Shown: in pieces, positions 1,007-18,745 of the stretch | Layout of the letters: every line of letters starts with the position of its first letter | How positions within the stretch are numbered: position 1 is the first letter of the stretch | NCBI GenBank assembly: GCA_045106895.1 | Contig: JBGCFM010000210.1 | Location: 1-33,882, forward strand | Length of the DNA stretch: 33,882 bases | DNA from: Polyangiales bacterium | GTDB lineage: Bacteria > Myxococcota_A > Polyangia > Polyangiales > Houyiibacteriaceae | Reading direction: 5' to 3' | The notes under the pieces: generated by a model | What the model was told of the DNA's origin: nothing | The model's database searches: none | What the model saw: only the letters and a program-made list of their open reading frames with translations | Translations under genes and position numbers: made by a program

Positions 1007-1714
1007 GTGCATCGACCTCTCGGACGAAAGGCGTACACGTCGATCCCGCACCTGCCGGGTTCGCGAACTGCCGGAGACCGTCACATCTCACTTCGCCAAG
1101 CCGAACGTCTGACGTGTGAGGCGCCTCGCGGTTTCGAGGTCGTGGTGCAAGAGAAGCTCGACGGTTCGTGCGTAGCGGCGGCGCGAATCGGCGACGACAT
1201 CGTTGCACTGGGCCGAGCAGGCGACCTGGCGGCGGAGTCACGCAACGCGGGCCGGCGCTTGTGGGCTGCCTGGGTCCACGAGCATCAAGGGCGCTTTCGA
1301 GCGTTGCTTCGGCCGGGGGAGCGGCTTGTCGGAGAGTGGCTGGCCCTCGCGCATTCCACTCACTATTCCCTCGTCCATGAGCCTTTCGTCGCCTTCGATC
1401 TGATGAGCGAGGCTGAACGCCTGACGTCGCTGGCGCTTGGACGGCGACTCCGGCAGACTGGCTTTTGTCTGCCTCACGAAGTTCACCGAGGGGATGCACT
1501 GGCCGTTCCCGCGGCCCTCACGATGCTAGGCCATGGCGGCCACGGCGCGATGGAGCCGCCCGAAGGGCTCGTCTATCGCTTGGAGTCCGAGGGAGCCGTG
1601 GCCCTCATCGCAAAACACGTTCGCCCGGGGAAGGTCGATGGCAGCCTTCTCGAGGAAAACACGGGGAAACCGCCGGTCTGGAACTGGCATCCCGACTTCA
1701 ATGAGCCTCGATGA
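1007..1714 (+). CDS. ATP-dependent RNA ligase family protein (Rnl2-like nucleotidyltransferase domain)
   Basis: KAYTSIPHLPGS N-terminus, motif I EKLDGS, GEW, FVAFDL, EGLVYR, AKHV. Confidence 0.8.
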   Translation: MHRPLGRKAYTSIPHLPGSRTAGDRHISLRQAERLTCEAPRGFEVVVQEKLDGSCVAAARIGDDIVALGRAGDLAAESRNAGRRLWAAWVHEHQGRFRALLRPGERLVGEWLALAHSTHYSLVHEPFVAFDLMSEAERLTSLALGRRLRQTGFCLPHEVHRGDALAVPAALTMLGHGGHGAMEPPEGLVYRLESEGAVALIAKHVRPGKVDGSLLEENTGKPPVWNWHPDFNEPR

Positions 1715-2847: not shown

Positions 2848-3620
2848 AAGAAGCCGCGATGCTCGCCATCGTTGATAGCGCCGCGAGGACGTCGTCGGAG
2901 GTGTTCATCCTTCGCGGTGGGCTCGTCATGCGAGACCTCATCGCGCCACTCCGTCGACCCGTCGATGACGTCGACTTCCTCGCGCTGTGCAGCGACGCCG
3001 AGGCCCGCGAGCGATTGAGTCTTCTCGCTCAACGCAGCGGAGACTTCGAACTCAGCCTTGGTCCCATCGAGCGTATTTGGGAAGAGACGGAGTTTCCCGG
3101 ACTGCGAACTCAATGCACGGCGAGGGGACTCGGCGGAGCGCTCGTCGTGCAGATCGACGTCGGCTTTGGTGACCCAAGAGCGGCGCCGGAGAGGCAGCTG
3201 AAACTCCCTGGAGCCCACGAGGCGATCGCGGCCGTCGCTCTTGAGACCATGCTCGCTTGGAAGATTCACGGCATCTTCGAGCGAGGCGACGGTGCGTGGC
3301 GCGCGAAGGACTTGATCGATGTGCACGACCTGGCGGAGCGCTGCGTGGATGAGGCCACAGCGGTGCGTTGTTTGGCGTTGGCGTTTGAGTCGCGGAGCGA
3401 CGACTTTTCGATCTGTGAGCGCTTCCTCTGCGGGGACTGGGGCACCAGTCGCGGCAGCCGGCGCAAGTGGCGTCAGTTTCGCCGCAGGCGGACGGAGTTC
3501 GACGCGACGCGTTGCTTCCCCGAGGACCTACAGGACTTTGTTGAGGCTCTGCGAGGACAGGTGGGAGCCCTCATCGCCGCCGCCTCACATTTGCCTCACA
3601 TAACGAGAGACCCACTGTAA
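2832..3620 (+). CDS. AbiEii/DUF1814-family nucleotidyltransferase
   Basis: ILRGG, RxxDDVDF, IDVGFGDP, ETMLAWK, RAKDLID motifs; overlaps upstream gene; alternative start 2859. Confidence 0.8.
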   Translation: MAPDLKEAAMLAIVDSAARTSSEVFILRGGLVMRDLIAPLRRPVDDVDFLALCSDAEARERLSLLAQRSGDFELSLGPIERIWEETEFPGLRTQCTARGLGGALVVQIDVGFGDPRAAPERQLKLPGAHEAIAAVALETMLAWKIHGIFERGDGAWRAKDLIDVHDLAERCVDEATAVRCLALAFESRSDDFSICERFLCGDWGTSRGSRRKWRQFRRRRTEFDATRCFPEDLQDFVEALRGQVGALIAAASHLPHITRDPL

Positions 3621-3649
3621 GCCACGGCATTCTTCGGCGTTTGAGTCGT

Positions 3650-6600
3650 ATGAACGCCCGACTCTTCTGGTTTTTGCTCCTCTGCGCCTGTGGAGCTTCG
3701 ATGAGCCCCCAATCGACACGATTCGCCGGCGGCATGGCCTACGACGAGGAGTCAGCTGCCTCCATGGGAGGAGCCAGCGCGCCGGCGGCGGAGGAAGAGG
3801 GCGACGTCAGCGGGAGTGCGCCACAGAGCTGGCGTCGGCACACGGAGCAAGCGACCTTCGCGCAGGTATCGCTGGGCGGAGGCCACACTCTGGAGCTTCG
3901 GGACGTGCGCGTTTCCGTTCGTGTGGAAGGTCATAGGGCGCGCACCGTTGTCGACCATGTCTTCTACAACCCCCACGCGCGAACTCTCGAGGGCACCTTT
4001 CGCTACTCGCTCCCGCCGGAGGCGACGGTGTCGGGCTACGCGATGTTCCTCGGCACAGGAAGCGAGCAGCCTTCGTTCTTTGGCGACGACGACGAGCAAG
4101 CGATGCGCCGGCGGGAGGCGGCACTCCAAGGAGGCAGCGTCGAGGCGCTGACGCAGTCCGTCGATGAGCGTGACTGGGGCCAGCTTCGCGTGGGGCGCTT
4201 CGTTCGCGCGCAGCAGGGACGTGAAGTGTATGAGAACACGACGAGGCGTAACGTCGACCCAGCGCTGGCGGAGACCGTGGGGCCCAACAGCTTCGAAGCC
4301 CGGGTCTTTCCCATCCAGGCCAACGCCTACCATCGCGTCATCGTCAGCTACGAGCAGACGCTCCCGCGCCTCGGTGACGAACTCGAGTATCTCTTTCCAA
4401 TGCCTGAGGGCGAACTCTCCTCCTTGGACTTCTTGCTTCAGGCAGATGGACAAAGCGTGCGCTCTTTGCGTTACACCGGCGACGTTCGCGGTCACGCCCT
4501 CGGCACCTTCGAGCACCACGTTCGCGTGGAGGGGAACACGCAGCCCGGAGCGCTCTCGTATCGCTTCGGTGTGCGCCATCAGAACGGCGTTGAGGCGCTC
4601 GTAGGCACGGACCCCGTCACGAGCGTGAGCCACTTCGCCCTGCGCGTATCCGCCGACGACACGCTCGGTGGCAACACATCGACGGCTTCCAGCGACGCCG
4701 TTTTTCTCCTCGACACCTCTCTCTCGGAGCACCCGGATCGCTTCAGCATCGATGTCGCGCTTCTTCAGGCCATTCTTCGCGACAACTCGCGCATTCGGAG
4801 GTTCAACGTCGTCACCTTCGACGCCGGCGCGCGCTGGCTCTCGTCCGAGTGGTTGCCAAACTCGGAACAAGGGCGTGCCCGGGCCATGTCGACCATCGAC
4901 GAGGTCCTTCTCGAAGGGGCAACGGACCTCTCCGCCGCGCTCTCCACGCTTCACGCGCCGCCCATGAACGCGAGCGAGAGCGTCGATGTCTTTCTCTTGA
5001 GCGACGGAGCCATCACCTGGGGAGAGCGAGACATCGCGACGCTTGTCGCTCCGCGGCAGTCGCCTTGGAACACAATGCGCACCTTCGCGTACCGCACAGG
5101 CCTGGGCGCGGAGAACACAGATCTGCTCCGTCGCGTCGCGCCGGAAGGGGTCTTCAACTGTCTCTCCATGGACAGCGTCCCAGGCTGCGCCGCGGCTCAC
5201 AACCGTCAGGCGATGCGCATCGAGAGCGTGAGCGTGGAAGGCGTCGGCGAGGGCGCTGAAACCGAAGACGTCCTCATCGCCGGAGGCGCCTCGACCTTCG
5301 CGCCGGGCACGGAGCTCGTCGTTGTGGGTCGCCTTCGCCGACCCGGCGCCGCGCGACTTCGCATTCGTGGTCGCCTCGCCGGACGCGCGATGGAGTGGAC
5401 ACGTTCGGTTCAGCTGCAGCCTACCGGCGAACTCGCGTCGCGCGCATGGGCGGAGGTAGCCGTGGCGCACCTGCTGAGCGGCGGGGACTACTCCCAGGAA
5501 GGTCGCGCGCGCGAAGACCTCGCCGTGTCCATTGGTCAGCACTACCGTGTCCCTTCGCGGGTCACTTCGGTTCTTGTCCTCGAGACAGACGCCGAGTACG
5601 AACAGCACGAGCTCCAGGCAGAGTTTAGCCAATGGAGCCCGGAGACCGTCCCATCCGCGCAGGTGCGCACCTCCTGGAGCCGGCTTCGTCGCGCGCTGGA
5701 AGACGGGGAGAGCCACAACCGTTTGGCGCAGCTCGAAGACGGCCGGATCCTCCGCGAGCTCTCACGCATCGTATCTCAGCGTCCGCGTGCCTTCATTGGA
5801 ACCCCCCGCGACGTACCCCTTGTTCTGCGCTCGGATGTCGGGCGCCGCTATCGCCGCGGGATCACGCGGGACGCGGACAGCGTCGAGCACTTTCGAGATG
5901 AAGCCATTCGGCGGCACGCCGAAGGTCAGACCGGGGCCGCGATCCGCGCGCTCTCGAGTAGCGTGGAGAACGCTCCGACCTCGGCCGAGGTCGCTCGCTC
6001 TCTCGCATACACGCTCATCAGTTGGGGCGAGAACGCGGCGGCGGCGGAGCTGCTTTTTTCGGTCCTCGAGCGGCGCGCCTATGAGCCGCAGAGCTATCGT
6101 GATCTTGCTGGCGCGCTCTGGCTCTACCGTCCGAGCATGACGGCGCTGCTCTTCGAGGCGGCTCTTGCCGGCGAGTGGGACGCGCGCTTTCGCGGGGTGC
6201 TCACCGTCGTCCAAGAAGAGTACGCGCTCTTCGCTCAGGCTTTCATTCGCCAGCAGCCGAACGCGCCTTTGGCGCGCTTCTTACGACAGCGCCAGCAGAC
6301 GCTCGCGCTCCGCGTGCCGGAAGGTGACCTGCGAGTCACGATGACGTGGAACACTGACAACACGGACGTCGACCTCTGGGTCACGGACCCCTCCGGCGAG
6401 AAGTGCTACTACGCGCACCCGGATACGGCGGCCGGTGGACATCTACTCGAAGACGTCACGCGGGGCTTTGGGCCCGAGCGCTTCCAGCTTTCAGACGCGC
6501 CGAGGGGCGAGTACCACGTGCAGGCTCACTACTACGGAAACAACGGAAACCGTCTCGTCGCGGATACCTATGTCACGCTGACGGTGACGCGTTATGTCGG

Positions 6601-6685
6601 GACCGAACAACAGCAGATCACCCGCCATGTGGTGCGCCTGGTCGATGCCGGCGAGGACGTCAGCGTGGCGCGCTTTCGGCTCTGA
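3650..6685 (+). CDS. VIT + vWA + TPR-like + DUF2135/YfaP-like lipoprotein
   Basis: Lipobox-like LLLCAC; VIT (ARTVVDHVFYNP..LEGTFRYSLP); MIDAS-like FLLDTSLS and LLSDG; C-terminal LRVTMTWNTDNTDVDLWVTDPSGE...GFGPE. Confidence 0.8.
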   Translation: MNARLFWFLLLCACGASMSPQSTRFAGGMAYDEESAASMGGASAPAAEEEGDVSGSAPQSWRRHTEQATFAQVSLGGGHTLELRDVRVSVRVEGHRARTVVDHVFYNPHARTLEGTFRYSLPPEATVSGYAMFLGTGSEQPSFFGDDDEQAMRRREAALQGGSVEALTQSVDERDWGQLRVGRFVRAQQGREVYENTTRRNVDPALAETVGPNSFEARVFPIQANAYHRVIVSYEQTLPRLGDELEYLFPMPEGELSSLDFLLQADGQSVRSLRYTGDVRGHALGTFEHHVRVEGNTQPGALSYRFGVRHQNGVEALVGTDPVTSVSHFALRVSADDTLGGNTSTASSDAVFLLDTSLSEHPDRFSIDVALLQAILRDNSRIRRFNVVTFDAGARWLSSEWLPNSEQGRARAMSTIDEVLLEGATDLSAALSTLHAPPMNASESVDVFLLSDGAITWGERDIATLVAPRQSPWNTMRTFAYRTGLGAENTDLLRRVAPEGVFNCLSMDSVPGCAAAHNRQAMRIESVSVEGVGEGAETEDVLIAGGASTFAPGTELVVVGRLRRPGAARLRIRGRLAGRAMEWTRSVQLQPTGELASRAWAEVAVAHLLSGGDYSQEGRAREDLAVSIGQHYRVPSRVTSVLVLETDAEYEQHELQAEFSQWSPETVPSAQVRTSWSRLRRALEDGESHNRLAQLEDGRILRELSRIVSQRPRAFIGTPRDVPLVLRSDVGRRYRRGITRDADSVEHFRDEAIRRHAEGQTGAAIRALSSSVENAPTSAEVARSLAYTLISWGENAAAAELLFSVLERRAYEPQSYRDLAGALWLYRPSMTALLFEAALAGEWDARFRGVLTVVQEEYALFAQAFIRQQPNAPLARFLRQRQQTLALRVPEGDLRVTMTWNTDNTDVDLWVTDPSGEKCYYAHPDTAAGGHLLEDVTRGFGPERFQLSDAPRGEYHVQAHYYGNNGNRLVADTYVTLTVTRYVGTEQQQITRHVVRLVDAGEDVSVARFRL

Positions 6686-6697
6686 ACCCGCTGCGTA

Positions 6698-7639
6698 TCA
6701 ACTCTTGGAGGCCGCGATGCGTCGCTCAAGAAAGTCGACGACGCGCTCGAAGGGCTTCACGTCGAAGTGTTCCGCCACGCTCGGCCGAAGGTTGGAGTTC
6801 GCGTTGACGTCATAGAAGACGAGGCGTCCGTCAGGAGTCTCAAGGTACTCCACACCGCCAACGTCGATGTTGGCGGCCTTGAGGATCTTCTTCGCGGTCT
6901 CCACGGCTGCCGGCGGCACCTCTGGGTAAGGATAGAACTCCACCGGCGGCGTGTTGACGACGGGAACTTCGCAGACGCTCTCTCCGCCTTCGCCCGGGTT
7001 ACAGACCGGGGAGGGGCAGAGGTTGAACTTTCCGTGGGTGACGACGCGCATCGGGTAGAGGAGCTCGCCGTCGAGGACCTCGAGACGAATGATGCCGTGG
7101 CTCGCGTCGTGCGGCAGGTACTCCTGCAAGAGGAAGAGGTTGTCCGGCGCCCAAATGTCGGCGCTGACAAAAGCCTGGCGTAGCTCGTCGGCGTTTTCGA
7201 CGACCTGAATCCGCGCGCCGCTCCCGCCGAGGTCCGGCTTGATCAGCCGAGGCCACGTGTTGTTCTCTTCGATGGCGGCTTCGACGTCGTTGAAGACAAT
7301 GGACTGGGGATGGTCGATGCCGAGCTGTCGACAAAGGGCAACCTGCGCCGCTTTGGAAAGCTCCATCGAGAATGCTTCGGACCCGTTGATGACGTCGCAG
7401 CCGAGGCGCTCCAGGTGACGCATCATGGAGAGCGCCAAGGGCACCGCCCGTTCATTGCCACGGACGTATGCACTTGGGCTGGCTTGGTTGAAGACGACCT
7501 TCGCCAAGGGGGCAGCGTCACTTCCGAAAGCGCATCGCTTGATGTCCACCTTCACGTAGTCGATGCCCCGGGCATCGAGGGCGGAGAAAAGAGGCTCTTG
7601 CCAGAGTGGGTGCTCAAAGAGGATCGCCAAGTCGCGCAT
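6698..7639 (-). CDS. RimK-like ATP-grasp ligase
   Basis: IKPDLGGSGARI, LLQEYLP, GGVEYL...FYDVNANSN. Confidence 0.8.
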   Translation of the reverse strand: MRDLAILFEHPLWQEPLFSALDARGIDYVKVDIKRCAFGSDAAPLAKVVFNQASPSAYVRGNERAVPLALSMMRHLERLGCDVINGSEAFSMELSKAAQVALCRQLGIDHPQSIVFNDVEAAIEENNTWPRLIKPDLGGSGARIQVVENADELRQAFVSADIWAPDNLFLLQEYLPHDASHGIIRLEVLDGELLYPMRVVTHGKFNLCPSPVCNPGEGGESVCEVPVVNTPPVEFYPYPEVPPAAVETAKKILKAANIDVGGVEYLETPDGRLVFYDVNANSNLRPSVAEHFDVKPFERVVDFLERRIAASKS

Positions 7640-7712
7640 CGGACGTCTTTAGTGCCTCATGCGCGGAGTGTCACCCACCCATCCCAACGATCAATACTCG
7701 GGCCCGATGAGT

Positions 7713-8222
7713 TCACCGTTTCGGGCGAGCGCCCCGCGACAGCTCATCCACGCGACGCAGCATCTCCGGAAGCCGGTGCTCTCCGGCCATCGAGGCGATG
7801 CGGCGGGCCGCTGAGTTCGCGCTGCCGGTGCATGTCACATAGAGGGGTTTTGTGGACTTCCCCCGAAGCACCTCCGCCGCCGGCGCTCCGACGTATTCGT
7901 TCTTTGCGACGCCGATCACCTCGACGCGCCCATCCAGAGCTCGCTGAAGGTGTCGGCCGAGACCCGGCTTGCCGCCGCCGAGGTCCACGTAGCCGTCCAC
8001 GATGATCGTCTTCAGATGAAGGCTCTCGTACGCGCGCTTGATGAGGGGCAAGATGCACGGCAGTTCGCGACGAAAGAACTCGCCGGCGGCATAGTCCTCG
8101 ACGACGCCATTGCGCGTGTCCGCCCACTCATGCAGTCGCTCTTTGGCTCTCCACGTCTCGAAGAGCACCGCTCCGGTGATGGCCTCATCGCCAGAGTAGT
8201 GGACGTCCGTCGCTAAGATCAT
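7713..8222 (-). CDS. nfi: Endonuclease V (short form)
   Basis: ILATDVHY, YxxGEFFRRELP, IIVDGY, GLG, IGVAK, KPLYVT, HRLPEMLRRVD. Confidence 0.88.
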   Translation of the reverse strand: MILATDVHYSGDEAITGAVLFETWRAKERLHEWADTRNGVVEDYAAGEFFRRELPCILPLIKRAYESLHLKTIIVDGYVDLGGGKPGLGRHLQRALDGRVEVIGVAKNEYVGAPAAEVLRGKSTKPLYVTCTGSANSAARRIASMAGEHRLPEMLRRVDELSRGARPKR

Positions 8223-8300
8223 GAGTGCAGCTGCATAGTGTTGGCCAGCCGCGTACGGCGCAATGCGCCCGGCGAAGCGAACTTCGCCGGGCGCGCCTGA

Positions 8301-9866
8301 CTACAGAGTGGCGGCATCGATTACCTGTGTCCACGAGGCGCCATCCGCTTGCACGAACTGCCCGACCACGGTGAACACAGCATCGGAGAAACCTCCCACG
8401 TTGAGAACGTCTGGCCGCTGGAGGACTTGGCGGTGGACGTTCGGCGTCAGATCGATGCAGACCAGCTTGGCCTTTGGATTTCGTTTCTTTAGCGTCATCC
8501 ATTGAGACATCATCTCCGTGCCGCGGCTCCAGCCAGAGCGACCCTTCGCGTCCATCCAAGACTCGTTGTCCGAGATGTAGATGAGTACGTCGACCTTGGC
8601 CTTCTCTGCGTTGAGCAGCGCCAGCGGCGCCGAGCAATTCGTTCCTCCGCCGCCGATAGACGCCAGAGCTCCCGCGATGGACATGATGCTGTCCCGTGGG
8701 TTGATCGGCAGCGTCCGAACCTTGTTCTCGAAGGGCAGAACGCGCGCGAGCGGGTTCTTCCGAAGCAGCGCCGCCGAGATCAGACCCGCGACGTCGACGC
8801 AGCGAACCGCCGTAGTGGACCCGCTACGAAACCCCGTCACGGGGCTCTGCATAGAACCAGAAACATCCGGGCAGATCACGACGTGTCCCGAAAGCTCCGG
8901 GATGTTGTGCGTGGCGTGCTCCATGGCGTCCTGAAGCGCCTCGGAGAGACGCGTGGAGAGCCCCTGTGTGCTGTTCCAAGCGACGAGAAGCTGATACGGA
9001 AAGACTTTTGCGCTCCGGACCTCGTCCTCGTCGCCGATGCGTTTCGCCACGAGTTTGATCATCGCCTCGTCATCGAAGACGCCGTGGCGCTGAAACGTGT
9101 TCAGGTTCATTCGTGTCTCGTGCCAACGCGCACGATGCGCGATGTCCGTCCACTCCGTCTTGCCCAGAGGCAGACCTGTGAGCATTCGTGAGGGCACCTT
9201 CGGCACACCTTGAGACTTATCGCCACGCTTCCACGCCTCGTAGTTCAAGACCGCAGCCGGCAGCTTTGAGAGGTCGTGGGGCTTGCCCAGGAGGTAGCCG
9301 AACATAGCCCGCTGCTCGTCGCTTAGAGGCTTCGGGTGAACCATGCGGATCACGTCCGCGAGGGAGGGGTCGTTGCCCACAGAGTCGCGGAAGAGCTGCA
9401 TCGGCGAGCGCTGCTGGAGCCATCGCTGCACGGCCTTCTTTGGCGCGCTGCCCAGAGATTTTCGTCCGAGCTGACCCGAACGAAGGACCTGCACGAAGTT
9501 GCGCAGCATTCGCCCGTTGTCGATGACGCGGGGAAACGCGAGCTTCATGGCCACAAGACCCTCGGGGCCGCGCGTCGCCAAATGCGCCAGAAGCACAGCC
9601 GGCATGTCTTTCATGAATGCGCGCTCGCGTGCGTAGATCGCCGCCTTCGCGACGTAGCGAGCGTCGCACTGAGCGGCGTGCTCCAGGACCACGTCGAGCT
9701 GCTCTTGGCCTGACACGTAGAACGTGCTGCCAAAACAGCCCGTGGCCGCGAGCTGCGCGAGGGCCGTAGGTGAGTCGAGGATGTACGCCGGCGCGCCCGC
9801 GTGATTCATGCTCGTCGTTTTCGGCGCAGCCTTCGCTGCACTTCGGAATAGGGACTTGATGGCCAT
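8301..9866 (-). CDS. rsr: Ro60/TROVE-vWA RNA-binding protein
   Basis: NHAGAPAY, LAQLAATGC..TFY, MKDMPA, MLRNF, PSLADVIRMVHPKP, PYQLL, DVSGSM, GGGTNCS, ISDNESW, VGGFSD; ATG at 9866 after AAAGGA. Confidence 0.93.
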   Translation of the reverse strand: MAIKSLFRSAAKAAPKTTSMNHAGAPAYILDSPTALAQLAATGCFGSTFYVSGQEQLDVVLEHAAQCDARYVAKAAIYARERAFMKDMPAVLLAHLATRGPEGLVAMKLAFPRVIDNGRMLRNFVQVLRSGQLGRKSLGSAPKKAVQRWLQQRSPMQLFRDSVGNDPSLADVIRMVHPKPLSDEQRAMFGYLLGKPHDLSKLPAAVLNYEAWKRGDKSQGVPKVPSRMLTGLPLGKTEWTDIAHRARWHETRMNLNTFQRHGVFDDEAMIKLVAKRIGDEDEVRSAKVFPYQLLVAWNSTQGLSTRLSEALQDAMEHATHNIPELSGHVVICPDVSGSMQSPVTGFRSGSTTAVRCVDVAGLISAALLRKNPLARVLPFENKVRTLPINPRDSIMSIAGALASIGGGGTNCSAPLALLNAEKAKVDVLIYISDNESWMDAKGRSGWSRGTEMMSQWMTLKKRNPKAKLVCIDLTPNVHRQVLQRPDVLNVGGFSDAVFTVVGQFVQADGASWTQVIDAATL

Positions 9867-9886
9867 GGTGTTTCCTTTCGCATTCG

Positions 9887-9922
9887 GCTGCGAAGCTCGA
9901 TGGCAATCGAGTAGGACTTCAT
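9887..9922 (-). repeat. 3' arm of long-range inverted repeat pairing with 12082-12117
   Basis: 9901-9919 is the reverse complement of 12085-12103 at 18/19 positions; flanking GCTGCG/CGCAGC and GTTC/GAGC also pair. Confidence 0.8.
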
Positions 9923-9929
9923 AGAAAGC

Positions 9930-10049
9930 GGGCGACGAGGTGATGCTGAGACAAGGCTGATGTCCTGCCATTGGACGACCGCGTCCGAAGACGCGACTCG
10001 GAGTCGAACCGAGATAGTCAGAGTGATGTAGTCCCAGCGGCATTCGCCC
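9930..10049 (-). ncRNA. YrlA-type Y RNA, copy 1
   Basis: 5' GGGCGAAUG pairs with 3' UCGCCC; CUGGGAC/GUCUCAG stem; T-arm CUCGG-UUCGACU-CCGAG, closed acceptor hairpin CGCGUC-UUCG-GACGCG, D-arm GUCC-AAUGGCA-GGAC; just upstream of rsr. Confidence 0.88.
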
Positions 10050-10135
10050 TGGCGGAAGATGGAGGAGTCGAACCCCTGCGCGTTTACGCCCCCGGTTTTC
10101 GAAACCGGTGTAGCTCCACAGCCACGTCATCTTCC
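10050..10135 (-). tRNA. tRNA-Ser(CGA), 8/4 fold
   Basis: GGAAGAUG/CAUCUUCC acceptor, G73, CCA; CCGGU-UUCGAAA-ACCGG; long variable arm; T-arm GGGG-UUCGACU-CCUC. Confidence 0.85.
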
Positions 10136-10140
10136 ATTGC

Positions 10141-10594
10141 GCTTCTCCGCCCAGCACGCCGCCCTCTGCGTTGCGCTGCGGCTCGGCATCCACAGATGCC
10201 GTCGCCTTGCGCGCCTTGATGGCGGCGCGCTGGACGAAGAATCGCCGAGGATGTTCTTGGGTCCTCGGACCCGTTGGCCCAGCACGCCGCCCTCTGCGTT
10301 GCGCTGCGGCTCGGCATCTACCGATGCCGTCTTCGGTTGTTGTGCTTCCCCGCCCAGCACGCCGCTGACTGCGTTGCGCTCGGTTCGGCATCCACAGATG
10401 CCCTCACCTCGCGCGCCTTGTCAGCGACGCGCTGGACGAGGAATCACGCGGGGTGTTTTCCTGGCTTCGGGGAAGCTCGGTGGCGCCTTGATGGCGGCGC
10501 GCTGGACGAAGAATCGCCGAGGATGTTCTTGGGTCCTCGGACCCGTTGGCCCAGCACGCCGCCCTCTGCGTTGCGCTGCGGCTCGGCATCTACC
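10141..10594. repeat. Cluster of ~100-bp palindromic (REP-like) elements with an exact 112-bp direct repeat
   Basis: Full copies 10141-10243 and 10344-10445 with central GGCATC-CACA-GATGCC, plus half copies; 10211-10322 = 10483-10594. Confidence 0.85.
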
Positions 10595-10607
10595 TTCGAT
10601 AGTAGTC

Positions 10608-10724
10608 GGGCGACGAGGTTGTACTGAGACGTTTCCCGACGCCCTCCCATTGGGCCACCGCGTGTTGCGACTCGGATTCGAACCGAGATATTCGGGGTCG
10701 TTGTAGTCCCAGCGGCATTCGCCC
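10608..10724 (-). ncRNA. YrlA-type Y RNA, copy 2
   Basis: Same 5' GGGCGAAUGCCGCUGGGACUACA and 3' GUCUCAG...CCUCGUCGCCC as copy 1; T-arm CUCGG-UUCGAAU-CCGAG; D-arm GCCC-AAUGGGA-GGGC; compensatory changes versus copy 1. Confidence 0.88.
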
Positions 10725-10811
10725 TGGAGGAAGCTGGAGGAGTCGAACCCCGACGCGCTTGCGCCACCCGCTTTCCAGGCGAGCTCGGCGACCATCGCCG
10801 ATGCAGCTTCC
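10725..10811 (-). tRNA. tRNA-Ser(GGA), 8/4 fold, extended D-stem, U73
   Basis: GGAAGCUG/CAGCUUCC-U-CCA; D-arm UCGGCG-AUGGU-CGCCGA; CUCGC-CUGGAAA-GCGGG; long variable arm. Confidence 0.82.
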
Positions 10812-10820
10812 CAAGTTTGT

Positions 10821-10920
10821 GCTTCCCCGCCCAGCACGCCGTCTCAGCGTCGCGCCGCGGTTCGGCATCCATAGTGCCGTCGCCTTGCGCTCCTGGGTCT
10901 CGACGCGGTGGACGAAGAAT
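10821..10920. repeat. Diverged third full copy of the palindromic element
   Basis: GCTTCCCCGCCCAGCACGCCG...GGCATCCATAGTGCC...TGGACGAAGAAT. Confidence 0.8.
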
Positions 10921-10988
10921 TATCGTGCGGTGTGCACCCGCGAAGGCGGAGGCATGATTGGCGCGCCTCTTTCCGTTCGGCTCCATCG

Positions 10989-11064
10989 TGGTGTGAATGG
11001 AGGGAGTCGAACCCCCACTGGGCCGAGTTTAAAACGGCTGCCTCTTCCATTGGGCTACACTCAC
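10989..11064 (-). tRNA. tRNA-Leu(TAA), short variable loop
   Basis: 76 nt; GUGAGUG/CAUUCAC-A-CCA; loop UU-UAA-AC. Confidence 0.85.
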
Positions 11065-11153
11065 TGGTGCTGTACGAACTACGCCGCGGGTGTGCACCTG
11101 CGAAGGCGTAGGCGGCGCCTGCAGCTGACGGGTAAGGACGTCAGCATGGAGCT

Positions 11154-11229
11154 TGGTGACGATGGAGAGATTCGAACTCTCACTGAGCTGTTTCTAAGAC
11201 AGCTGCCTCTCCCGTTGGGCTACATCGCC
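11154..11229 (-). tRNA. tRNA-Leu(TAG), short variable loop
   Basis: 76 nt; GGCGAUG/CAUCGUC-A-CCA; GCUGU-CUUAGAA-ACAGC. Confidence 0.88.
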
Positions 11230-11251
11230 GATGTTTGTTTTAGAGAAAAAG

Positions 11252-11327
11252 TGGTGCGAGCGAAGGGAGTCGAACCCCCACTGGGCCGAGTTTGAAACGG
11301 CTGCCTCTTCCGTTGGGCTACACTCGC
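11252..11327 (-). tRNA. tRNA-Leu(CAA), short variable loop
   Basis: 76 nt; GCGAGUG/CGCUCGC-A-CCA; loop UU-CAA-AC; near-duplicate of Leu(TAA). Confidence 0.85.
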
Positions 11328-11351
11328 AGCGTCTTCTCGTCTGAGAAGACG

Positions 11352-11423
11352 TGGTCCCGCCGGGTGGAATCGAACCACCCTCGCCGCCCATATGAAGAGC
11401 GCGCCGGTCCAACCGTCGGCGGG
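11352..11423 (-). tRNA. tRNA-Met/Ile2(CAT) with shortened D-arm
   Basis: CCCGCCG/CGGCGGG-A-CCA; CGCUC-UUCAUAU-GGGCG; T-arm GGUGG-UUCGAUU-CCACC; 72 nt. Confidence 0.72.
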
Positions 11424-11426
11424 ATT

Positions 11427-11654
11427 TGGTAGCGGGGCCAGGAGTCGAACCTGAGTGCTGAGGGATATGAACCCAGTGTCGCGATGGGGTACTTTGACTC
11501 CGAACTCGAGGCCCTCGTCAGCGATCTCGGGTTCGCATCACCTCGAATGTGCAAGCACGTCCTTCGGCGAAGCGACTCCCGACCTCACGGGCGATCATCC
11601 ACGACTAAGGAGCCAAACCACCCCATCGCGACACAGACGCCGGTCTTCCCCGCA
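11427..11654 (-). tRNA. Initiator-like tRNA-fMet(CAT) interrupted by a 157-bp insertion (possible pseudogene)
   Basis: UGCGGGG/CCCCGCU-A-CCA with 1:72 mismatch; GGG-UUCAUAU-CCC; T-arm UCAGG-UUCGACU-CCUGG; insertion between D-arm and anticodon arm. Confidence 0.72.
11477..11633. mobile_element. MITE-like element
   Basis: TG...CA ends; 14-bp perfect TIR TGTCGCGATGGGGT extending to 25 bp with 3 mismatches; flanked by CAG at 11474-11476 and 11634-11636; no transposase. Confidence 0.7.
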
Positions 11655-11694
11655 AAGGAAGCCATCGATGCGCCCGTGGGCACACCAATGGACT

Positions 11695-11770
11695 TGGTGG
11701 AGTCGAGGGGAACCGAACCCCTGACCTCGTGGGTGCAAATCACGCGCTCTCCCAACTGAGCTACGACCCC
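11695..11770 (-). tRNA. tRNA-Ala(TGC)
   Basis: GGGGUCG/CGACUCC-A-CCA with G3:U70; loop UU-UGC-AC; T-loop UUCGGUU. Confidence 0.88.
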
Positions 11771-11783
11771 AAGATTTTCGAAA

Positions 11784-11859
11784 CGGTGATCCGAGCGTGA
11801 ATCGAACACGCGACTTCCTGAATGTTAAACAGGCACTCTCCCTACTGAGCTATCGGATC
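11784..11859 (-). tRNA. tRNA-Val(AAC)
   Basis: GAUCCGA/UCGGAUC-A-CCG; CCUGU-UUAACAU-UCAGG; T-arm GCGUG-UUCGAUU-CACGC. Confidence 0.8.
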
Positions 11860-11873
11860 AAAATGCGCCGGTG

Positions 11874-11945
11874 CGGCAGGTCGTCGAGGAGTTGAACCCC
11901 GCGCAGCTGGTGTTGGAAGCCTGCTTGTGCCCCGGCACACGACCT
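11874..11945 (-). tRNA. tRNA-Trp(CCA), shortened D-arm, degenerate anticodon stem
   Basis: AGGUCGU/ACGACCU-G-CCG; loop UU-CCA-AC; T-arm CGGGG-UUCAACU-CCUCG. Confidence 0.65.
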
Positions 11946-11983
11946 AGAGTTCCCTTCCGAGGAGTTTCCGAATGGAAGGAAAA

Positions 11984-12046
11984 GTGGCGACGAGAAGTTA
12001 GAGAGACATGGCTATCATGCGATGTAGTCCCCCTGGCATTCGCCAC
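11984..12046 (-). ncRNA. Minimal Y-RNA-like element (Ro-binding module only)
   Basis: GUGGCGAAUGCCAGGGGGACUACAUC...GUCUCUCU...UCGUCGCCAC: same termini and GGGACUACA core as the two Yrl copies, no tRNA-like domain. Confidence 0.72.
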
Positions 12047-12051
12047 GAAGT

Positions 12052-12079
12052 TGGTGCGTGAGCTTGGGAAAACCCACGC
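12052..12079 (-). other. ACCA-terminated microhelix
   Basis: GCGUGGGUUU-UCCC-AAGCUCACGC-A-CCA. Confidence 0.45.
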
Positions 12080-12081
12080 GA

Positions 12082-12117
12082 ATAAAGTCCTACTCGATTG
12101 TCAAAGAACGACGCAGC
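12082..12117 (-). promoter_or_regulatory. boxA-like antitermination site within the 5' arm of the long-range duplex
   Basis: CGUUCUUUGACAAU (12110-12097) resembles rrn boxA; complementary to 9887-9922. Confidence 0.65.
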
Positions 12118-12210
12118 ACGACATCCCTCCATGAGCTGGAGGCAAAGAAGTGCATTTGATATGTGCATTTGAAGTGCGCATATCTTCGTCTCTTGTTCGT
12201 TAGAACAAGT

Positions 12211-12286
12211 GGGTGGATCCGGAGGGCATCGAACCCTCAACCGCCCGGGTAAGAACCGGGTGCTCTGCCTGTTGAGCTACGGATCC
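12211..12286 (-). tRNA. tRNA-Lys(CTT)
   Basis: GGAUCCG/CGGAUCC-A-CCC; CCCGG-UUCUUAC-CCGGG. Confidence 0.88.
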
Positions 12287-12287
12287 C

Positions 12288-12362
12288 TGGTGGGGCTGAA
12301 GGGTGTCGAACCCCCAACCGTCCGGGTAAAAACCGGCTGCTCTGCCGTTGAGCTACAACCCC
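12288..12362 (-). tRNA. tRNA-Lys(TTT)
   Basis: GGGGUUG/CAGCCCC-A-CCA; GCCGG-UUUUUAC-CCGGA. Confidence 0.88.
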
Positions 12363-12467
12363 AGGTGGTGTTGCAGCGTCCGTTTGTATCGTTCCATGTG
12401 TTGTCTTTCCCGTGCGACCGTTGAGACTTCAGAGGGGACCCTCAGGAGGATGAGTGCGTCCAAGAAC

Positions 12468-12500
12468 AAAAAAAACCGCCCGAGGCTGGTGCCTGGGCGG
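12468..12500 (-). terminator. Intrinsic terminator (attenuator) upstream of the tRNA array
   Basis: CCGCCC-AGGC-ACCA-GCCU-C-GGGCGG followed by U8. Confidence 0.85.
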
Positions 12501-12535
12501 GTTCGATACGTGTGAGAACGTATTTCGAAGCCGCC
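12496..12535 (-). promoter_or_regulatory. Antiterminator hairpin overlapping the terminator 5' arm
   Basis: GGCGG-C-UUCG-AA-AUACG-UUCUCACA-CGUAU-CGAA-C-CCGCC; the final CCGCC is shared with the terminator. Confidence 0.7.
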
Positions 12536-12708
12536 TAGGTGAGGTTTGCCTCTCCCACGAGCTTGGCCATGAGCTTGGCTACGGGCTTGCTGAGAATTGC
12601 CGATACCGACAAGGATGAAGAACCTAATGAAAGGACGAGCGCATCGAGAGAGCCAAGGTGTTTGCCTTGCCATCGCTTTGCTTCGGTCTGTTCGTTCAGG
12701 TGTTGCAT
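12535..12708 (-). CDS. Putative 57-aa attenuator leader peptide
   Basis: MQHLNEQTEAKRWQGKHLGSLDALVLSLGSSSLSVSAILSKPVAKLMAKLVGEANLT*; stop codon at the base of the antiterminator; no clear SD. Confidence 0.5.
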   Translation of the reverse strand: MQHLNEQTEAKRWQGKHLGSLDALVLSLGSSSLSVSAILSKPVAKLMAKLVGEANLT

Positions 12709-15419: not shown

Positions 15420-15526
15420 GCAAACTTTGCTCGGTCGATTGTACGTTCTTTGTTGTTGTAAGTGCCTGAAAACAAACGTGAAATCGCTACGCGCGTCGTT
15501 GGCCAAGGCCTTGCTCTACCCGAGCC

Positions 15527-16429
15527 ATGTTCTTCGCATCCAAGCTCGTCGCCCTCATCCTTGTCTTCACCATCGGCACCTCCATCATCGCCAGCGCATC
15601 TCCGGTGACCCCGGCGGAGCGGGAGAGCGAGTCTGCATCCGAGGCCGCCGAGGAGAGCGCCGAGAGCGCGGAACTTACGCTTCCTTTCGGCTTCTCCCTC
15701 GACACCCAAATGGCCGTGTACTCGACGCGTTTTCGAACGCATGGACGCAGCCGTGCACGCGCACACAACGTGACGCGGGCCGCCGAGCTCCTGCATCAGA
15801 CCATCATCGCCCCACACGGAACCTTGAGCTTCAATGAGGCCGTCGGAGCGCGCACGCGTGCAAACGGCTTTCGGCGCGCCATGGTCATCGACGGCGGCGA
15901 GCTTGTGCCCGGCATGGGCGGCGGCGTCTGTCAGGTGGCGAGCACTCTCTACGCCGCCGCGCTTGGGGCGGGCCTCGATGTCGTCGACGCGCGACCCCAC
16001 AGCCGCCCCAGCAGCTACATCCCGATGGGTCTCGACGCGACGGTGTCTTACCCAAACCTGGACCTCGTTCTCAGCAACCCCTTCGACTTTCCGATCCAAG
16101 TGCTCGCTCATGCGAGTGAAGGCGTGATGGTCGTGGAGCTCATCGGACAGGCGCGGCCCATCGAAACAAGCGTGCGCCGCCGTGTCCTGAGCCGGCAGCC
16201 CTTCGAGGAGCGCATCGTCGAAGACCCCGCCATGCCCGTCGGTACGCGTGAGGTCACCCAAGAGGGCATTCGAGGCGCACGTATTGTCGTCACGCGGACT
16301 CTGAGGGACGAGAGCGGCGCGACCCGCGAAGAGCGAAACGTCGTGCGTTACCCTCCGACGGACGAGATCATCCGCGTGGGCTCGCAGGCTCCGTCGGGTC
16401 TCGCGCGCCTGACGTCCTGGCTTCGCTGA
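15527..16429 (+). CDS. VanW-family protein with G5-like C-terminus
   Basis: LSFNEAVG, GGGVCQVASTLY, PHS...GLDATV; EVTQEGIRG...EIIRVG. Confidence 0.88.
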   Translation: MFFASKLVALILVFTIGTSIIASASPVTPAERESESASEAAEESAESAELTLPFGFSLDTQMAVYSTRFRTHGRSRARAHNVTRAAELLHQTIIAPHGTLSFNEAVGARTRANGFRRAMVIDGGELVPGMGGGVCQVASTLYAAALGAGLDVVDARPHSRPSSYIPMGLDATVSYPNLDLVLSNPFDFPIQVLAHASEGVMVVELIGQARPIETSVRRRVLSRQPFEERIVEDPAMPVGTREVTQEGIRGARIVVTRTLRDESGATREERNVVRYPPTDEIIRVGSQAPSGLARLTSWLR

Positions 16430-16510
16430 CAACACGGCGGAGTCCCAGCACGTCGCGGGACAAGCTGTCGTCGATGTCCGGCGCCGCGGAGCGGAGAACG
16501 CGCACTTTGA

Positions 16511-17449
16511 GTGCATGACTCGGTGGCACGCGCGTTGCTCTTTGAGCACGTAATGTGCACCACGAAGAGACACTCTATGGCCGCGATATGCGCGTTCATC
16601 GCGCCCTTCTGCATGCTCGTGCCCGGCGAACTTGGGGGCGTGGGGGCGACGCTCTTTGCGCTCATCGCTTGGGCTTCCGCTACGCAGACATCCATCGAGC
16701 CCGCGATCATTCTCGTCTTTGTTCTCTTCGGCTTTGGAGCCGCGAACGCGCACCCCTACTTGCAGTGGGCGGTGTGCCTCGGCGTACCGTTTGGTGTCAC
16801 CGTCTTGATCAGTCTCTGCGAAGGGCGCATTCGACCACGCGCCTGGTTCCGACTTCTCCGCGGAGCCCTCGCCCGACTCTTCGCGACCCCGGGGACTCGC
16901 GGCACCATTCATGCGCGTTGGTTCGCTTTTGGCTTCTGGCTCGTGTTCCTCATCATCGCCGTTCAGACCGAGCACGCGCAGGCGCACTACCTCCAGGCTT
17001 GGCTGGTCGCGTTCCTCATGATGTGGGCGCTGCGTTGGTCGGTGCCGCGTTGGGAGCCGGCGAGGCTGGCGCGGCTGTCCCTCGCGTTCAGCGCGCAGCC
17101 GTTGCTCTACACCTTCACCTCGCACCCGAGCATGATCCGCTCTTCGTCTCTCACGTACGTCCCCATCGCGTGTATGTCTCTCGCGGCTCTTTGGCTCATC
17201 GCGGAGTGCTGGCGCGATTGGCGCATTCTCGCTGGACGCCACCCGCGCTGGACCCTCGCCGAACGAAAGGCCGAAGGAAAACGCCATCGCCACTTGATTC
17301 GCGAGCGAGTGGTCCAAACGAGCTACCGAGACTCCACGCAGGGGAGCGTCGTAGGCTCCCTTCCGCAGCGAGCCAGCTTTGGCACGGAGGTCTGCGTCTT
17401 CCTTGTCTTCACCGCCGCCTTTCAGTTCTTCAAGCTCTTGCTCTTCTGA
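16511..17449 (+). CDS. Hypothetical multi-pass membrane protein
   Basis: Many hydrophobic helices; fills gap co-directionally; start uncertain. Confidence 0.6.
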   Translation: MHDSVARALLFEHVMCTTKRHSMAAICAFIAPFCMLVPGELGGVGATLFALIAWASATQTSIEPAIILVFVLFGFGAANAHPYLQWAVCLGVPFGVTVLISLCEGRIRPRAWFRLLRGALARLFATPGTRGTIHARWFAFGFWLVFLIIAVQTEHAQAHYLQAWLVAFLMMWALRWSVPRWEPARLARLSLAFSAQPLLYTFTSHPSMIRSSSLTYVPIACMSLAALWLIAECWRDWRILAGRHPRWTLAERKAEGKRHRHLIRERVVQTSYRDSTQGSVVGSLPQRASFGTEVCVFLVFTAAFQFFKLLLF

Positions 17450-17495
17450 CCAAATCGGGGCTTCTTTCCGGGCCGTTTGGCACTAGACCCAGCCC

Positions 17496-17891
17496 ATGGG
17501 TCGCAGAGTCATGGTCGTCGGCGCGTCCGTCGCGCTTACGCTGCTTGTTCTCGACCTCGCCTTCCTCGGCGTCGTCGCCAAGCCCGTCTACGACGCTGCC
17601 CTCGGAGGTCTTCGGCGCCAACCGGTCTACTGGCCGCCCGCGTTGATTTTCTACGCCATTTACGTGTTCGCGATCAGCCGCTTCGCCGTCATGCGCGCGT
17701 CGAATCGGCGCGACGCGCTCAAGCGTGGCGCGTCGTTGGGCTTTGTCGCCTACGCCACGTTTGAACTCACGAGCTGGGCCGTGCTGGCGGGCTGGCCTTC
17801 CTTTTTGGTGCCCATCGATATCGCCTGGGGAGTCGTGCTCACCGGAGCGACGGCCCTCGCCGGGCGCGTGAGCATGGAGCGACTCGGATGA
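17496..17891 (+). CDS. DUF2177-family membrane protein
   Basis: LDLAFLG, YATFELT.WA.LAGWP...DIAWG. Confidence 0.82.
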   Translation: MGRRVMVVGASVALTLLVLDLAFLGVVAKPVYDAALGGLRRQPVYWPPALIFYAIYVFAISRFAVMRASNRRDALKRGASLGFVAYATFELTSWAVLAGWPSFLVPIDIAWGVVLTGATALAGRVSMERLG

Positions 17892-18679
17892 TGGGGGCCG
17901 TCGGCATCAACGCCCTCGTCGTCCTCGGCGCAGTGTCGCTTCTTTGGGTCGTCAGCGTCTTCAAGCGAGACGCCAGCATCGTCGATCCGTTGTGGGCGCC
18001 GCTCTTCGCCATCATCACTGCCTCCTCCCTCGCGCAGAGCACGCTCTCGCCGGCCAAGCTTCTCCTCGCCGCTATGGTTTTCGCCTGGGCCGCGCGCCTC
18101 GGTGGCTACCTGCTCTGGCGCAACTGGGGTCAGCCCGAGGACTTTCGCTATCAGGCCTTCCGCAAGAACTACGGCCCTGAGCGCTACTGGTGGTTCAGCT
18201 TCTTCCAAGTGTTCCTCCTCCAGGGGGCGCTCGCGTTCTTCGTGTCGGCGCCTCTTCAGGTCGCGACGCTGAGCGCGACTCCGGATGCCATCGGCGCCTT
18301 CGACATCGCCGGCGCGCTGATCTTCGGAGTGGGCTTTGTGTTCGAAGCGCTCGGTGACTATCAGCTGCTGACGTTCAAGAAAGACCCACACAACAAGGGC
18401 AAGCTCTTGACGCGCGGGCTCTGGGCGTGGACGCGACACCCCAACTACTTCGGCAACGCGGCGATGTGGTGGGGCTTCGGCTTGAGCGCCTTCGACTTCA
18501 CTTCCTTCGAGACCAGCGTCTCGGGCGTCGTCGCCTTTCTCGGGCCGCTCCTGATGACCTTCCTCTTGCTTCGTGTGTCCGGCGTATCGCTTCTTGAGAA
18601 GCACCTCGCGAAGACCAAGCCCGGCTTTGAAGAGTACATGGCCAACACGCCTGCGTTCTTTCCGCGGCCTCCACGCTAG
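17888..18679 (+). CDS. DUF1295 (steroid 5-alpha-reductase-like) membrane protein
   Basis: SIVD, EDFRY, DYQL..FK, GLWAWTRHPNYFG, SGV..LE. Confidence 0.9.
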   Translation: MMGAVGINALVVLGAVSLLWVVSVFKRDASIVDPLWAPLFAIITASSLAQSTLSPAKLLLAAMVFAWAARLGGYLLWRNWGQPEDFRYQAFRKNYGPERYWWFSFFQVFLLQGALAFFVSAPLQVATLSATPDAIGAFDIAGALIFGVGFVFEALGDYQLLTFKKDPHNKGKLLTRGLWAWTRHPNYFGNAAMWWGFGLSAFDFTSFETSVSGVVAFLGPLLMTFLLLRVSGVSLLEKHLAKTKPGFEEYMANTPAFFPRPPR

Positions 18680-18745
18680 CCATTGGTTCGGCGAAGGGCT
18701 CCGCCCACCTTGGCAAGAGCAAGGCGATCCCGTTACCTTACGCGA

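Follow-up and report, generated by a model that had tools for sequence, protein, structure and literature searches.

How does a Y RNA come by its 5' end when its stem begins on the nucleotide that follows the CCA of a tRNA? This question is raised by a stretch of 33,882 nucleotides (nt) from a Polyangiales bacterium (contig JBGCFM010000210.1 of assembly GCA_045106895.1; "the window" below means this whole stretch), in which two Y RNAs, Yrl1 and Yrl2, each abut a serine tRNA gene at the end of a tRNA array that leads into rsr, the gene of the Ro60 orthologue, with all features of the locus on the minus strand. That Y RNAs lie next to rsr, mimic tRNAs and can be co-transcribed with them is already known. 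According to Chen et al. 2014 (PMC4201824), Yrn2 of Deinococcus radiodurans shares a polycistronic precursor with tRNA-Asp and Yrn1, and a single precursor upstream of rsr is processed into the Y RNAs of Mycobacterium smegmatis. The answer that we favour here, and consider reasonably probable on the anatomy of the DNA, is that the locus represents the promoter-distal end of a polycistronic tRNA-array–Y RNA–rsr operon that would be matured by endonucleolytic cuts of the tRNA type. The layout without spacers suggests that the enzymes that trim the tRNAs may also cut out the Y RNAs.

Structure of the Y RNAs

When searched in E-value mode, the Rfam model YrlA (RF02553) matched the window twice over its full length (model positions 1-114 of 114), at 9926-10050 (50.3 bits, E 1.2e-9) and at 10604-10725 (48.0 bits, E 5.5e-9), and our covariance model R1 scored Yrl1 and Yrl2 at 122.4 and 104 bits, respectively. 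Both Rfam scores are below the gathering score of 69 bits, and with gathering thresholds Rfam reported no Y RNA in the window, only seven ordinary tRNAs. Since the Yrl copies of the relatives also all fall below 69 bits (38-62 bits), the curated threshold misses a whole clade of Y RNAs. Yrl1 and Yrl2 lie 59 nt and 737 nt upstream of rsr on its strand, that is, within the 4 kb and in the orientation by which Chen et al. recognise Y RNAs. Yrl1 folds into a handle (GGGCGAAUGCC/UCGCCC), a second helix and a permuted tRNA-like domain with T, AS and D arms, and in both Y RNAs GGCGAAUG fits the motif GNCGAAN0-1G in the 5' strand of the handle.

An alignment of 10 Yrl sequences with MAFFT, folded by RNAalifold, gave only 18 pairs, and because the 3' strands were misaligned it was replaced by the structure mapped from Yrl1 and by R1. 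In the 19 best matches of R1, coming from 13 sources and aligned by fitting to the model, which favours structure, 88.1% of the cells are paired, both sides change in 26 of 32 pairs, and none of 500 shuffles reached as high a value. The T arm is paired in 97.8%, the AS arm in 87.7% and the handle helices in 98% of cases; the D helix reaches 55% in this model-fitted alignment, yet it is formed in both copies in the window. Yrl1 and Yrl2 are mutual closest relatives (76% identity), and where they differ in stems the differences are often matched, as in CUGA/UCAG against CCCGA/UCGGG and GUCC/GGAC against GCCC/GGGC. Judging by these compensatory differences, which fall in the acceptor, D and acceptor-like stems, both copies are under structural selection.

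A third and shorter RNA of this kind, called mini-Y here, lies at 12046..11981 (R1 44.1 bits, E 1.7e-9; Rfam YrlA 28.7 bits, E 0.0013), and has the Ro-type handle (GUGGCGAAUGCC.../...CUCGUCGCCAC and GGGACUAC) without the tRNA-like domain. RNAs resembling mini-Y, 66-90 nt long, were also seen in six related loci (L029, L031, L033, L040, L042 and L050; L numbers denote rsr loci of other sequences), and some of these abut tRNA-Gln or tRNA-Asn with zero spacer.

Serine tRNAs of the 8/4 type

Neither of the two tRNA-Ser genes in the window is matched by the general tRNA model of Rfam (RF00005), and both match tRNA-Sec (42.3 and 41.3 bits), the pattern expected from an acceptor stem of 8 base pairs (bp). 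We tested the 8/4 cloverleaf on an alignment of nine homologous serine tRNAs from rsr loci, in which 95.2% of the cells are paired and 15 of 26 pairs have changes on both sides, values that none of 500 shuffles attained. The eighth acceptor pair (columns 8-80) is formed and covaries in all nine (AU in five, GC in four), the T stem has 4 bp with 100% pairing, and the D stem has 6 bp. Both genes of the window have U33, a purine at position 37, a long variable arm that folds as a hairpin and an encoded CCA; the discriminator is G73 in tRNA-Ser(CGA) and U73 in tRNA-Ser(GGA), and the former gene is 87% identical to tRNA-Ser(CGA) of locus L033. Thus, by their predicted structure both are (8/4) tRNA-Ser of the type described by Mukai et al. 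2017 (PMC5389517), who report such (8/4) tRNA-Ser and allo-tRNA genes from tRNA gene clusters of phages and proteobacteria, with the long variable arm and G73 or U73 as serine identity elements. The likeness extends to the 12-bp acceptor branch split 8/4, the serine anticodons and the location in tRNA clusters; the difference is that the genes of the window sit in Myxococcota arrays next to rsr and are fused to Y RNAs, and a word search of that paper met no mention of Y RNA, Ro60 or TROVE. The features are as expected of chargeable tRNAs.

Genes resembling 8/4 tRNA-Ser with inserts of about 65-70 nt in the T loop were found in L031 (1212-1373 and 1614-1896), L033 (5509-5609) and L050 (4532-4690). 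The insert of L031 and L033 is a repeat, further copies of which stand in either orientation in the same arrays, and the inserts matched no Rfam family at E <=0.01.

Junctions between tRNAs and Y RNAs

The unpaired first position of the YrlA model corresponds to the A of the tRNA's CCA, and therefore the Y stem GGGCGA starts at 10049 in Yrl1 and at 10724 in Yrl2. The CCA of each tRNA-Ser thus abuts the Y RNA without a spacer (10050/10049 and 10725/10724). Along the two tRNA-Ser–Yrl units, 157 of 213 positions are identical, and the best-conserved block (74 nt, 88%) crosses the junction. An original prediction, made by a reader of the sequence alone, had described just such a duplicated unit, in which 8/4 tRNA-Ser genes run directly into Y RNAs that covary in their stems (CUGA/UCAG and CCCGA/UCGGG), and had proposed a covariance-model search. 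The identity of the two units, the abutting coordinates, the tRNA-Sec matches together with the eighth acceptor pair and the 4-bp T stem, the stem exchange in the sequence and the full-length matches of YrlA and R1 agree with it on each of these points.

The arrangement recurs in relatives. For the gaps between neighbours we used 10 loci that bear Yrl RNAs, with the 33 best R1 matches and three in L050, leaving out those whose overlap with a called tRNA exceeds 5 nt. From a tRNA to a following Yrl the gap is <=1 nt in 9 of 18 cases, which overstates the number of independent events since related (orthologous) junctions are not independent, and <=6 nt in 10 of 18; from tRNA to tRNA the corresponding numbers are 11 and 31 of 80, and from a Yrl to a following tRNA 2 and 7 of 15. 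The tRNAs that abut a Yrl at <=1 nt have six identities (serine twice, aspartate, glutamine, phenylalanine twice, proline and asparagine twice), and the junctions read N73-CCA/G, N73-CC/G or N73 plus 1-2 nt followed by the Y stem. The last form is found in L038, which has no encoded CCA there, and several junctions are alike in this. These observations lead us to favour a selected processing junction inside a single transcript as the most fitting account of the sequence.

One may also consider that the tRNA serves mainly as a processing handle in cis, a 5' leader whose 3' processing sets the 5' end of the Y RNA and that has little role in translation. Tight tRNA-to-Yrl gaps relative to tRNA-to-tRNA gaps in the same arrays speak for such a handle, as do the high conservation of the junction block within the duplicated unit and the junctions that lack an encoded CCA. 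On the other hand, these tRNAs are part of alternative sets that are almost complete, and their intact anticodon arms have come to carry two different serine anticodons, with compensatory changes; the proposal also departs from the operon model in emphasis only. We therefore consider it unlikely as a description of the locus. Comparable units in which a tRNA is linked to another RNA are the tRNA-linked snoRNAs, the viral tRNA-miRNA units and MALAT1-mascRNA.

A bracket of complementary arms

The block from mini-Y to Yrl1 is enclosed by an inverted repeat of 36 nt, which we call the bracket, whose arms (Table 1) are 81% complementary with a duplex energy of -52.3 kcal/mol; the 5' arm ends about 35 nt upstream of mini-Y. 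Equivalent inverted repeats are present in L032, L033, L038 and L050, with arms of 24-43 nt that have 84-88% complementarity and are separated by 0.23-4.0 kb, and energy scans also detected the bracket in L034 and L037. Every closer-clade locus with a Yrl and sufficient sequence upstream, seven in all, thus shows it. Over seven loci, arms from the same locus pair with a mean energy of -59.9 kcal/mol, versus -37.0 kcal/mol for arms from different loci. Beside a conserved core the arms consist of locus-specific but mutually complementary sequences, i.e. they have undergone compensatory changes. Long complementary arms on one strand (24-43 nt, 81-88%, in five loci) and compensatory evolution (in seven) are what one would look for in a processing stalk. 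The pattern fits an RNA helix within one transcript, and a co-varying bracket around the Y RNA/tRNA block argues for such a transcript. The stalks of rRNA operons, which are cut by RNase III, likewise bring together complementary sequences that lie kilobases apart on one transcript and enclose structured RNAs, whereas the putative stalk of the window has tRNAs and Y RNAs inside it and stops within the 5' untranslated region of a protein gene.

The conserved core also bears on another possibility, namely that the Y RNAs and rsr are transcribed independently, with the TTGACA-core element acting as promoter or operator in both orientations and with the abutment resulting from tight packing and duplication. 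A perfect TTGACA forms part of the arm's core and is located 21 nt before the Yrl in L032 and L034; in most loci an inverted copy precedes the start of rsr by about 45-60 nt; inverted core-like elements also precede rsr in loci where the upstream partner is missing or past the end of the contig; and tRNA arrays are tightly packed anyway, as the many tRNA-to-tRNA gaps of <=6 nt illustrate. In contrast, there is no acceptable -10 element at the right spacing, and a scan for sigma-70-like promoters over 8200-12700 gave zero sites. Moreover, a protein-binding site would not need the locus-specific covariation of the arms outside the core, and the element of the window stands upstream of mini-Y (5' arm end at 12082), not before Yrl1 or Yrl2. 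Independent transcription therefore appears quite unlikely to us. A promoter role of the TTGACA element was accordingly rejected as the main reading, there being no -10 element at usable spacing. Our terminator scan of the minus strand found no terminator-like site between Yrl1 and rsr.

Dispersed palindromes

The original prediction had also placed a palindrome of about 100 bp, 5-9 nt upstream of each tRNA-Ser, in the duplicated unit. The hairpins are real, with minimum free energies (MFE) of -47 and -76 kcal/mol (-47 to -85 kcal/mol over the hairpins folded), and by the nhmmer envelope they end 7 and 11 nt upstream of the tRNAs rather than at the predicted distances. Their membership in the unit did not hold. 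A hidden Markov model made from 22 copies of this REP-like family and run with nhmmer over the contigs of the genome returned 32 matches on 17 contigs, often in tandem. The window has six of these, three complete and three partial copies, and four of the six lie between Yrl2 and tRNA-Ser(CGA); the other 26 are on 16 other contigs, where none is within 2 kb of a tRNA. The hairpin family is thus dispersed, with its other copies away from tRNAs, and is a repeat rather than part of the duplicated module. These REP-like repeats have colonised the spacers and could have promoted the duplication of the unit. REP/BIME sequences are repetitive extragenic palindromes, and the family resembles them in consisting of imperfect palindromes of about 100 nt on many contigs, often clustered in tandem; it differs in that it was matched to no named family. 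Within the REP cluster there is an exact duplicate of 112 nt (10211-10322 equals 10483-10594), which is either a recent rearrangement or an effect of assembly.

Proposed maturation

The sequences show what the RNAs are, how they fold, how the junctions are built, that these recur in relatives and that the bracket covaries; from this anatomy, the comparative pattern and the Deinococcus precedent we infer co-transcription, the position of the cut, the nuclease and the binding to Rsr. The single transcript would start 5' of the tRNA-Lys pair and continue through mini-Y, about ten tRNAs and the two paralogous units of 8/4 tRNA-Ser and Yrl into rsr. The long-range helix formed by the bracket would enclose the block from mini-Y to Yrl1 and would probably act as a stalk that parts the small RNAs from the rsr mRNA. 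RNase P would cut the 5' ends of the tRNAs and, in relatives, may also make the 3' ends of Y RNAs. An endonucleolytic cut at or within CCA/G would then complete the tRNA-Ser at its 3' end and the Y RNA at its 5' end, perhaps with CCA repair afterwards, and the freed Y RNAs would bind Rsr by the GNCGAA-type handle. A precise endonucleolytic cut is the economical solution because, where there is no spacer, a 3' exonuclease coming from downstream must destroy the Y RNA. Cutting of the Y RNA 5' end by RNase P measuring from the T loop is unlikely, since the folds, seen against the known enzymology, give about 22 bp plus loops versus 12 bp.

Several observations weigh against this operon model. A search of the window's own genome (96%-complete) for the RNase Z family gave nothing above the cut-off (best score 68.2 versus 292.95 bits). 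RNase E prefers AU-rich single strands, and CCA/GGGCGA offers none. Besides the dependence among related junctions mentioned above, the arrangement itself is not conserved, as the order is Yrl followed by 8/4 tRNA-Ser(CGA) in L031, L033, L038 and L050, tRNA-Arg and the Yrl stand 43 nt apart in L032 and L034, and in G002, a genome of the same genus, the 394 nt available upstream of rsr are devoid of both tRNA and Yrl. In principle the bracket could function as an inverted repeat at the DNA level, and the TTGACA in its core makes an internal promoter or operator conceivable.

In an alternative reading the junction is left uncut and the RNA functions as a stable chimera of tRNA-Ser and Y RNA, the uncharged tRNA being an added tRNA-shaped module that would, for example, recruit tRNA-binding proteins to Rsr. 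Such a chimera would agree with the zero spacer, with the lack of an obvious nuclease site or of an RNase Z over the cut-off, and with MFE folds that keep the tRNA and Y domains independent (0-2 pairs across the junction). Furthermore, contig C247 of the window's genome carries canonical 7/5 tRNA-Ser(CGA) and tRNA-Ser(GGA) genes, which makes the array copies dispensable for decoding. Nevertheless, the upstream tRNA varies in identity from locus to locus and half of the gaps exceed 1 nt, so a fixed chimera is not conserved, and both tRNA-Ser genes keep the features listed above that are expected of chargeable tRNAs. A stable chimera seems to us very unlikely, and we return to the operon model as the one that best accommodates the locus.

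Layout of the locus

ARAGORN reports ten tRNA genes at 12362..10050, the last two being tRNA-Ser(GGA) and tRNA-Ser(CGA). The terminator-like hairpin preceding them, missing from the terminator scan because its loop is longer than 8 nt, is likely the end of a unit upstream of the array, and the promoter of the array would therefore be expected within 12363-12467.

Table 1. Features of the tRNA-array–Y RNA–rsr locus, listed along the minus strand
Feature	Position	Strand	Basis and remarks
Terminator-like hairpin, U8 tail	12500..12468	-	Read from the sequence; about 105 nt 5' of first tRNA
tRNA-Lys(UUU) and tRNA-Lys(CUU), 1 nt between them	12212..12362	-	ARAGORN, Rfam; first array genes, outside the bracket
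Bracket 5' arm, core GACAAUCGAG	12082..12117	-	Inverted-repeat search, duplex energy
mini-Y RNA, 66 nt, YrlB-like	11981..12046	-	R1, Rfam YrlA, fold
Degenerate tRNA-like element	11877-11946	-	Heads the rest of the array (10989..11946)
tRNA-Val, tRNA-Ala, 271-nt element, tRNA-Met, three tRNA-Leu (CAA, UAG, UAA)		-	In this order after the degenerate element
Hairpin-bearing tRNA-like element, 271 nt	11424-11694	-	
REP-like hairpin copy A	10823..10922	-	nhmmer E 1.1e-20; MFE -47.1 kcal/mol; stops 11 nt short of tRNA-Ser(GGA)
8/4 tRNA-Ser(GGA)	10725..10811	-	ARAGORN, Rfam tRNA-Sec, fold
Yrl2, YrlA-type Y RNA	10604..10724	-	Rfam, R1, covariation
REP-like cluster	10143..10593	-	Full copies 10346-10446, 10143-10244; partial 10549-10593, 10483-10516, 10277-10331
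8/4 tRNA-Ser(CGA)	10050..10135	-	ARAGORN, Rfam tRNA-Sec, fold
Yrl1, YrlA-type Y RNA	9926..10049	-	Rfam, R1, fold, covariation
Bracket 3' arm	9887..9922	-	Starts 3 nt past Yrl1, stops 20 nt short of the rsr start codon
rsr (Ro60 orthologue, 521 amino acids)	8301..9866	-	Pfam vWA_Ro60 5.1e-17, TROVE 2e-7

The 271-nt element (MFE -141.7 kcal/mol) has an acceptor-like stem, a T arm and an ACCA end, with a near-perfect hairpin of about 190 nt where the anticodon arm is expected; its only Rfam match was a weak one to permuted tmRNA (23.8 bits), and a tRNA match of 164 nt with a large insert in L050 (2626-2789) may be compared with it. The three tRNA-Leu genes of the window (UAA, UAG and CAA; 10989-11327) are 76 nt long each, with a short variable region and A73, and the other tRNA-Leu genes of this genome are canonical, at 85-87 nt. 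Directly 5' of the ribosome-binding site of rsr there is a small hairpin with CGAAUG (9867-9886, minus strand), conserved in L030, L031, L033 and L038, which resembles the handle motif of the Y RNAs and could be an autoregulatory site for Rsr. Genes near rsr, at 1007-8222 of the window, encode an RNA ligase, a Ham1-family protein, an AbiEii nucleotidyltransferase, an endonuclease V-like protein, a VIT/vWA protein of 1014 amino acids and a RimK-like ATP-grasp protein, which by their annotation would lend the neighbourhood a flavour of RNA repair or defence.

Genomic context and relatives

A second tRNA array, without rsr or Yrl, is found on contig C74 of the same genome (17 tRNAs, 15452-19569), with three more tRNAs at the end of C270 (180-675). 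The gene order of C74 and C270 parallels the arrays of L033 and L038, and together with the array of the window their tRNAs cover nearly all amino acids. Outside the array contigs, CCA is encoded in 32 of 44 tRNA genes of the host.

Homologues of Rsr are present in 12 of 61 related genomes, the window's own genome counted. Rsr identity is 75% in another family and 72% in the same genus; this failure to track taxonomy suggests a mobile cassette. A copy of rsr that is 71% identical was detected on a contig of a viral collection, surrounded by 26 tRNAs. We examined 13 loci of the window's type, and in 10 of them Yrl RNAs are embedded in tRNA arrays. In phage Mx1, tRNAs surround a TROVE gene whose protein is 46% identical to the Rsr of the window, and R1 found no Yrl in this phage at E <=0.001; a blastn comparison with phages gave only matches at the level of tRNAs and the TROVE gene of Mx1. 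The actinophages ET08 and Bordeaux gave a sole YrlA-type match in their Ro loci, a partial one in ET08 (37.4 bits) that does not abut a tRNA, which shows that phage Ro loci do not generally have the fusion. Similarly, L039-L042 (Hyphomicrobiaceae and Lysobacter) have three to five tandem Yrl RNAs downstream of rsr without tRNAs, and hence the array-embedded layout is specific to the Myxococcota-type cassette.

Comparison with known systems and implications

The Y RNAs of the window resemble YrlA and YrlB beside rsr in Salmonella Typhimurium and M. smegmatis in the GNCGAA-type handle, the second helix, the circularly permuted tRNA-like domain and the GGUUCGA T loop, as well as in lying on the rsr strand within 4 kb and in being accompanied by a second, short Y RNA of the hairpin type (mini-Y). 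They differ in being sub-threshold (48-50 vs 69 bits), in lying inside a tRNA array and starting right after CCA, and in that no rtcBA genes follow rsr. Close in organisation is Yrn2–tRNA-Asp–Yrn1 of Deinococcus, where a tRNA and Y RNAs share a precursor beside rsr, which is what we propose for the window. In contrast to it, the Myxococcota Y RNAs sit in an alternative set of 10 to >20 tRNA genes and in a bracketed block. Half of their tRNA-to-Y junctions are 0-1 nt.

Also known are 8/4 tRNA-Ser genes in tRNA clusters and TROVE genes in archaeal tRNA clusters, 20 of 29 of which carry one (Morgado & Vicente 2019, PMC6333295). Like the window, those arrays and the mycobacterial ones (PMC12803027) combine a dense alternative set of tRNAs with a TROVE/Ro60 gene, whereas these papers describe no Y RNAs inside the arrays, and a word search of PMC12803027 gave 0 occurrences of Y RNA or Ro60. 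We found no literature description of the spacer-less tRNA/Y RNA junction and its recurrence, nor of Y RNAs in near-complete Myxococcota tRNA arrays, their link with 8/4 tRNA-Ser or the co-varying bracket, in a search that did not extend to the supplements of Chen et al. 2014 or to the reviews PMC10870794 and PMC6047535, which may mention tRNA-linked Y RNAs.

Taken jointly, these features allow a wider reading, which we offer tentatively and regard as possible rather than probable. In a Myxococcota clade, and on the contig filed as viral, Y RNAs would regularly belong to mobile tRNA arrays, alternative and near-complete sets with rsr as their last gene. They would be matured like tRNAs: one cut at CC(A)/G would finish the tRNA at its 3' end and set the start of the Y RNA, whose own 3' end would be made by RNase P acting on the tRNA that follows, and the block of small RNAs would be excised from the rsr mRNA at a conserved stalk of 24-43 bp. 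The Rsr–Y ribonucleoprotein (RNP) would then serve the tRNAs of the array, as a dedicated quality-control or anti-defence partner of noncanonical tRNAs such as the 8/4 tRNA-Ser, the short-armed tRNA-Leu and the tRNAs with inserts.

Little is known of how the ends of bacterial Y RNAs arise. At this locus the genome hard-wires the start of a Y RNA to the 3' end of a tRNA, and in relatives it also ties the 3' end of a Y RNA to the start of a tRNA, which makes the processing model concrete and directly testable. The bracket is a candidate for an operon-scale processing stalk outside rRNA operons, and the locus links topics that have been studied separately, namely Ro60/Y RNPs, noncanonical 8/4 tRNAs and mobile tRNA arrays, the latter having been proposed to be anti-defence units.

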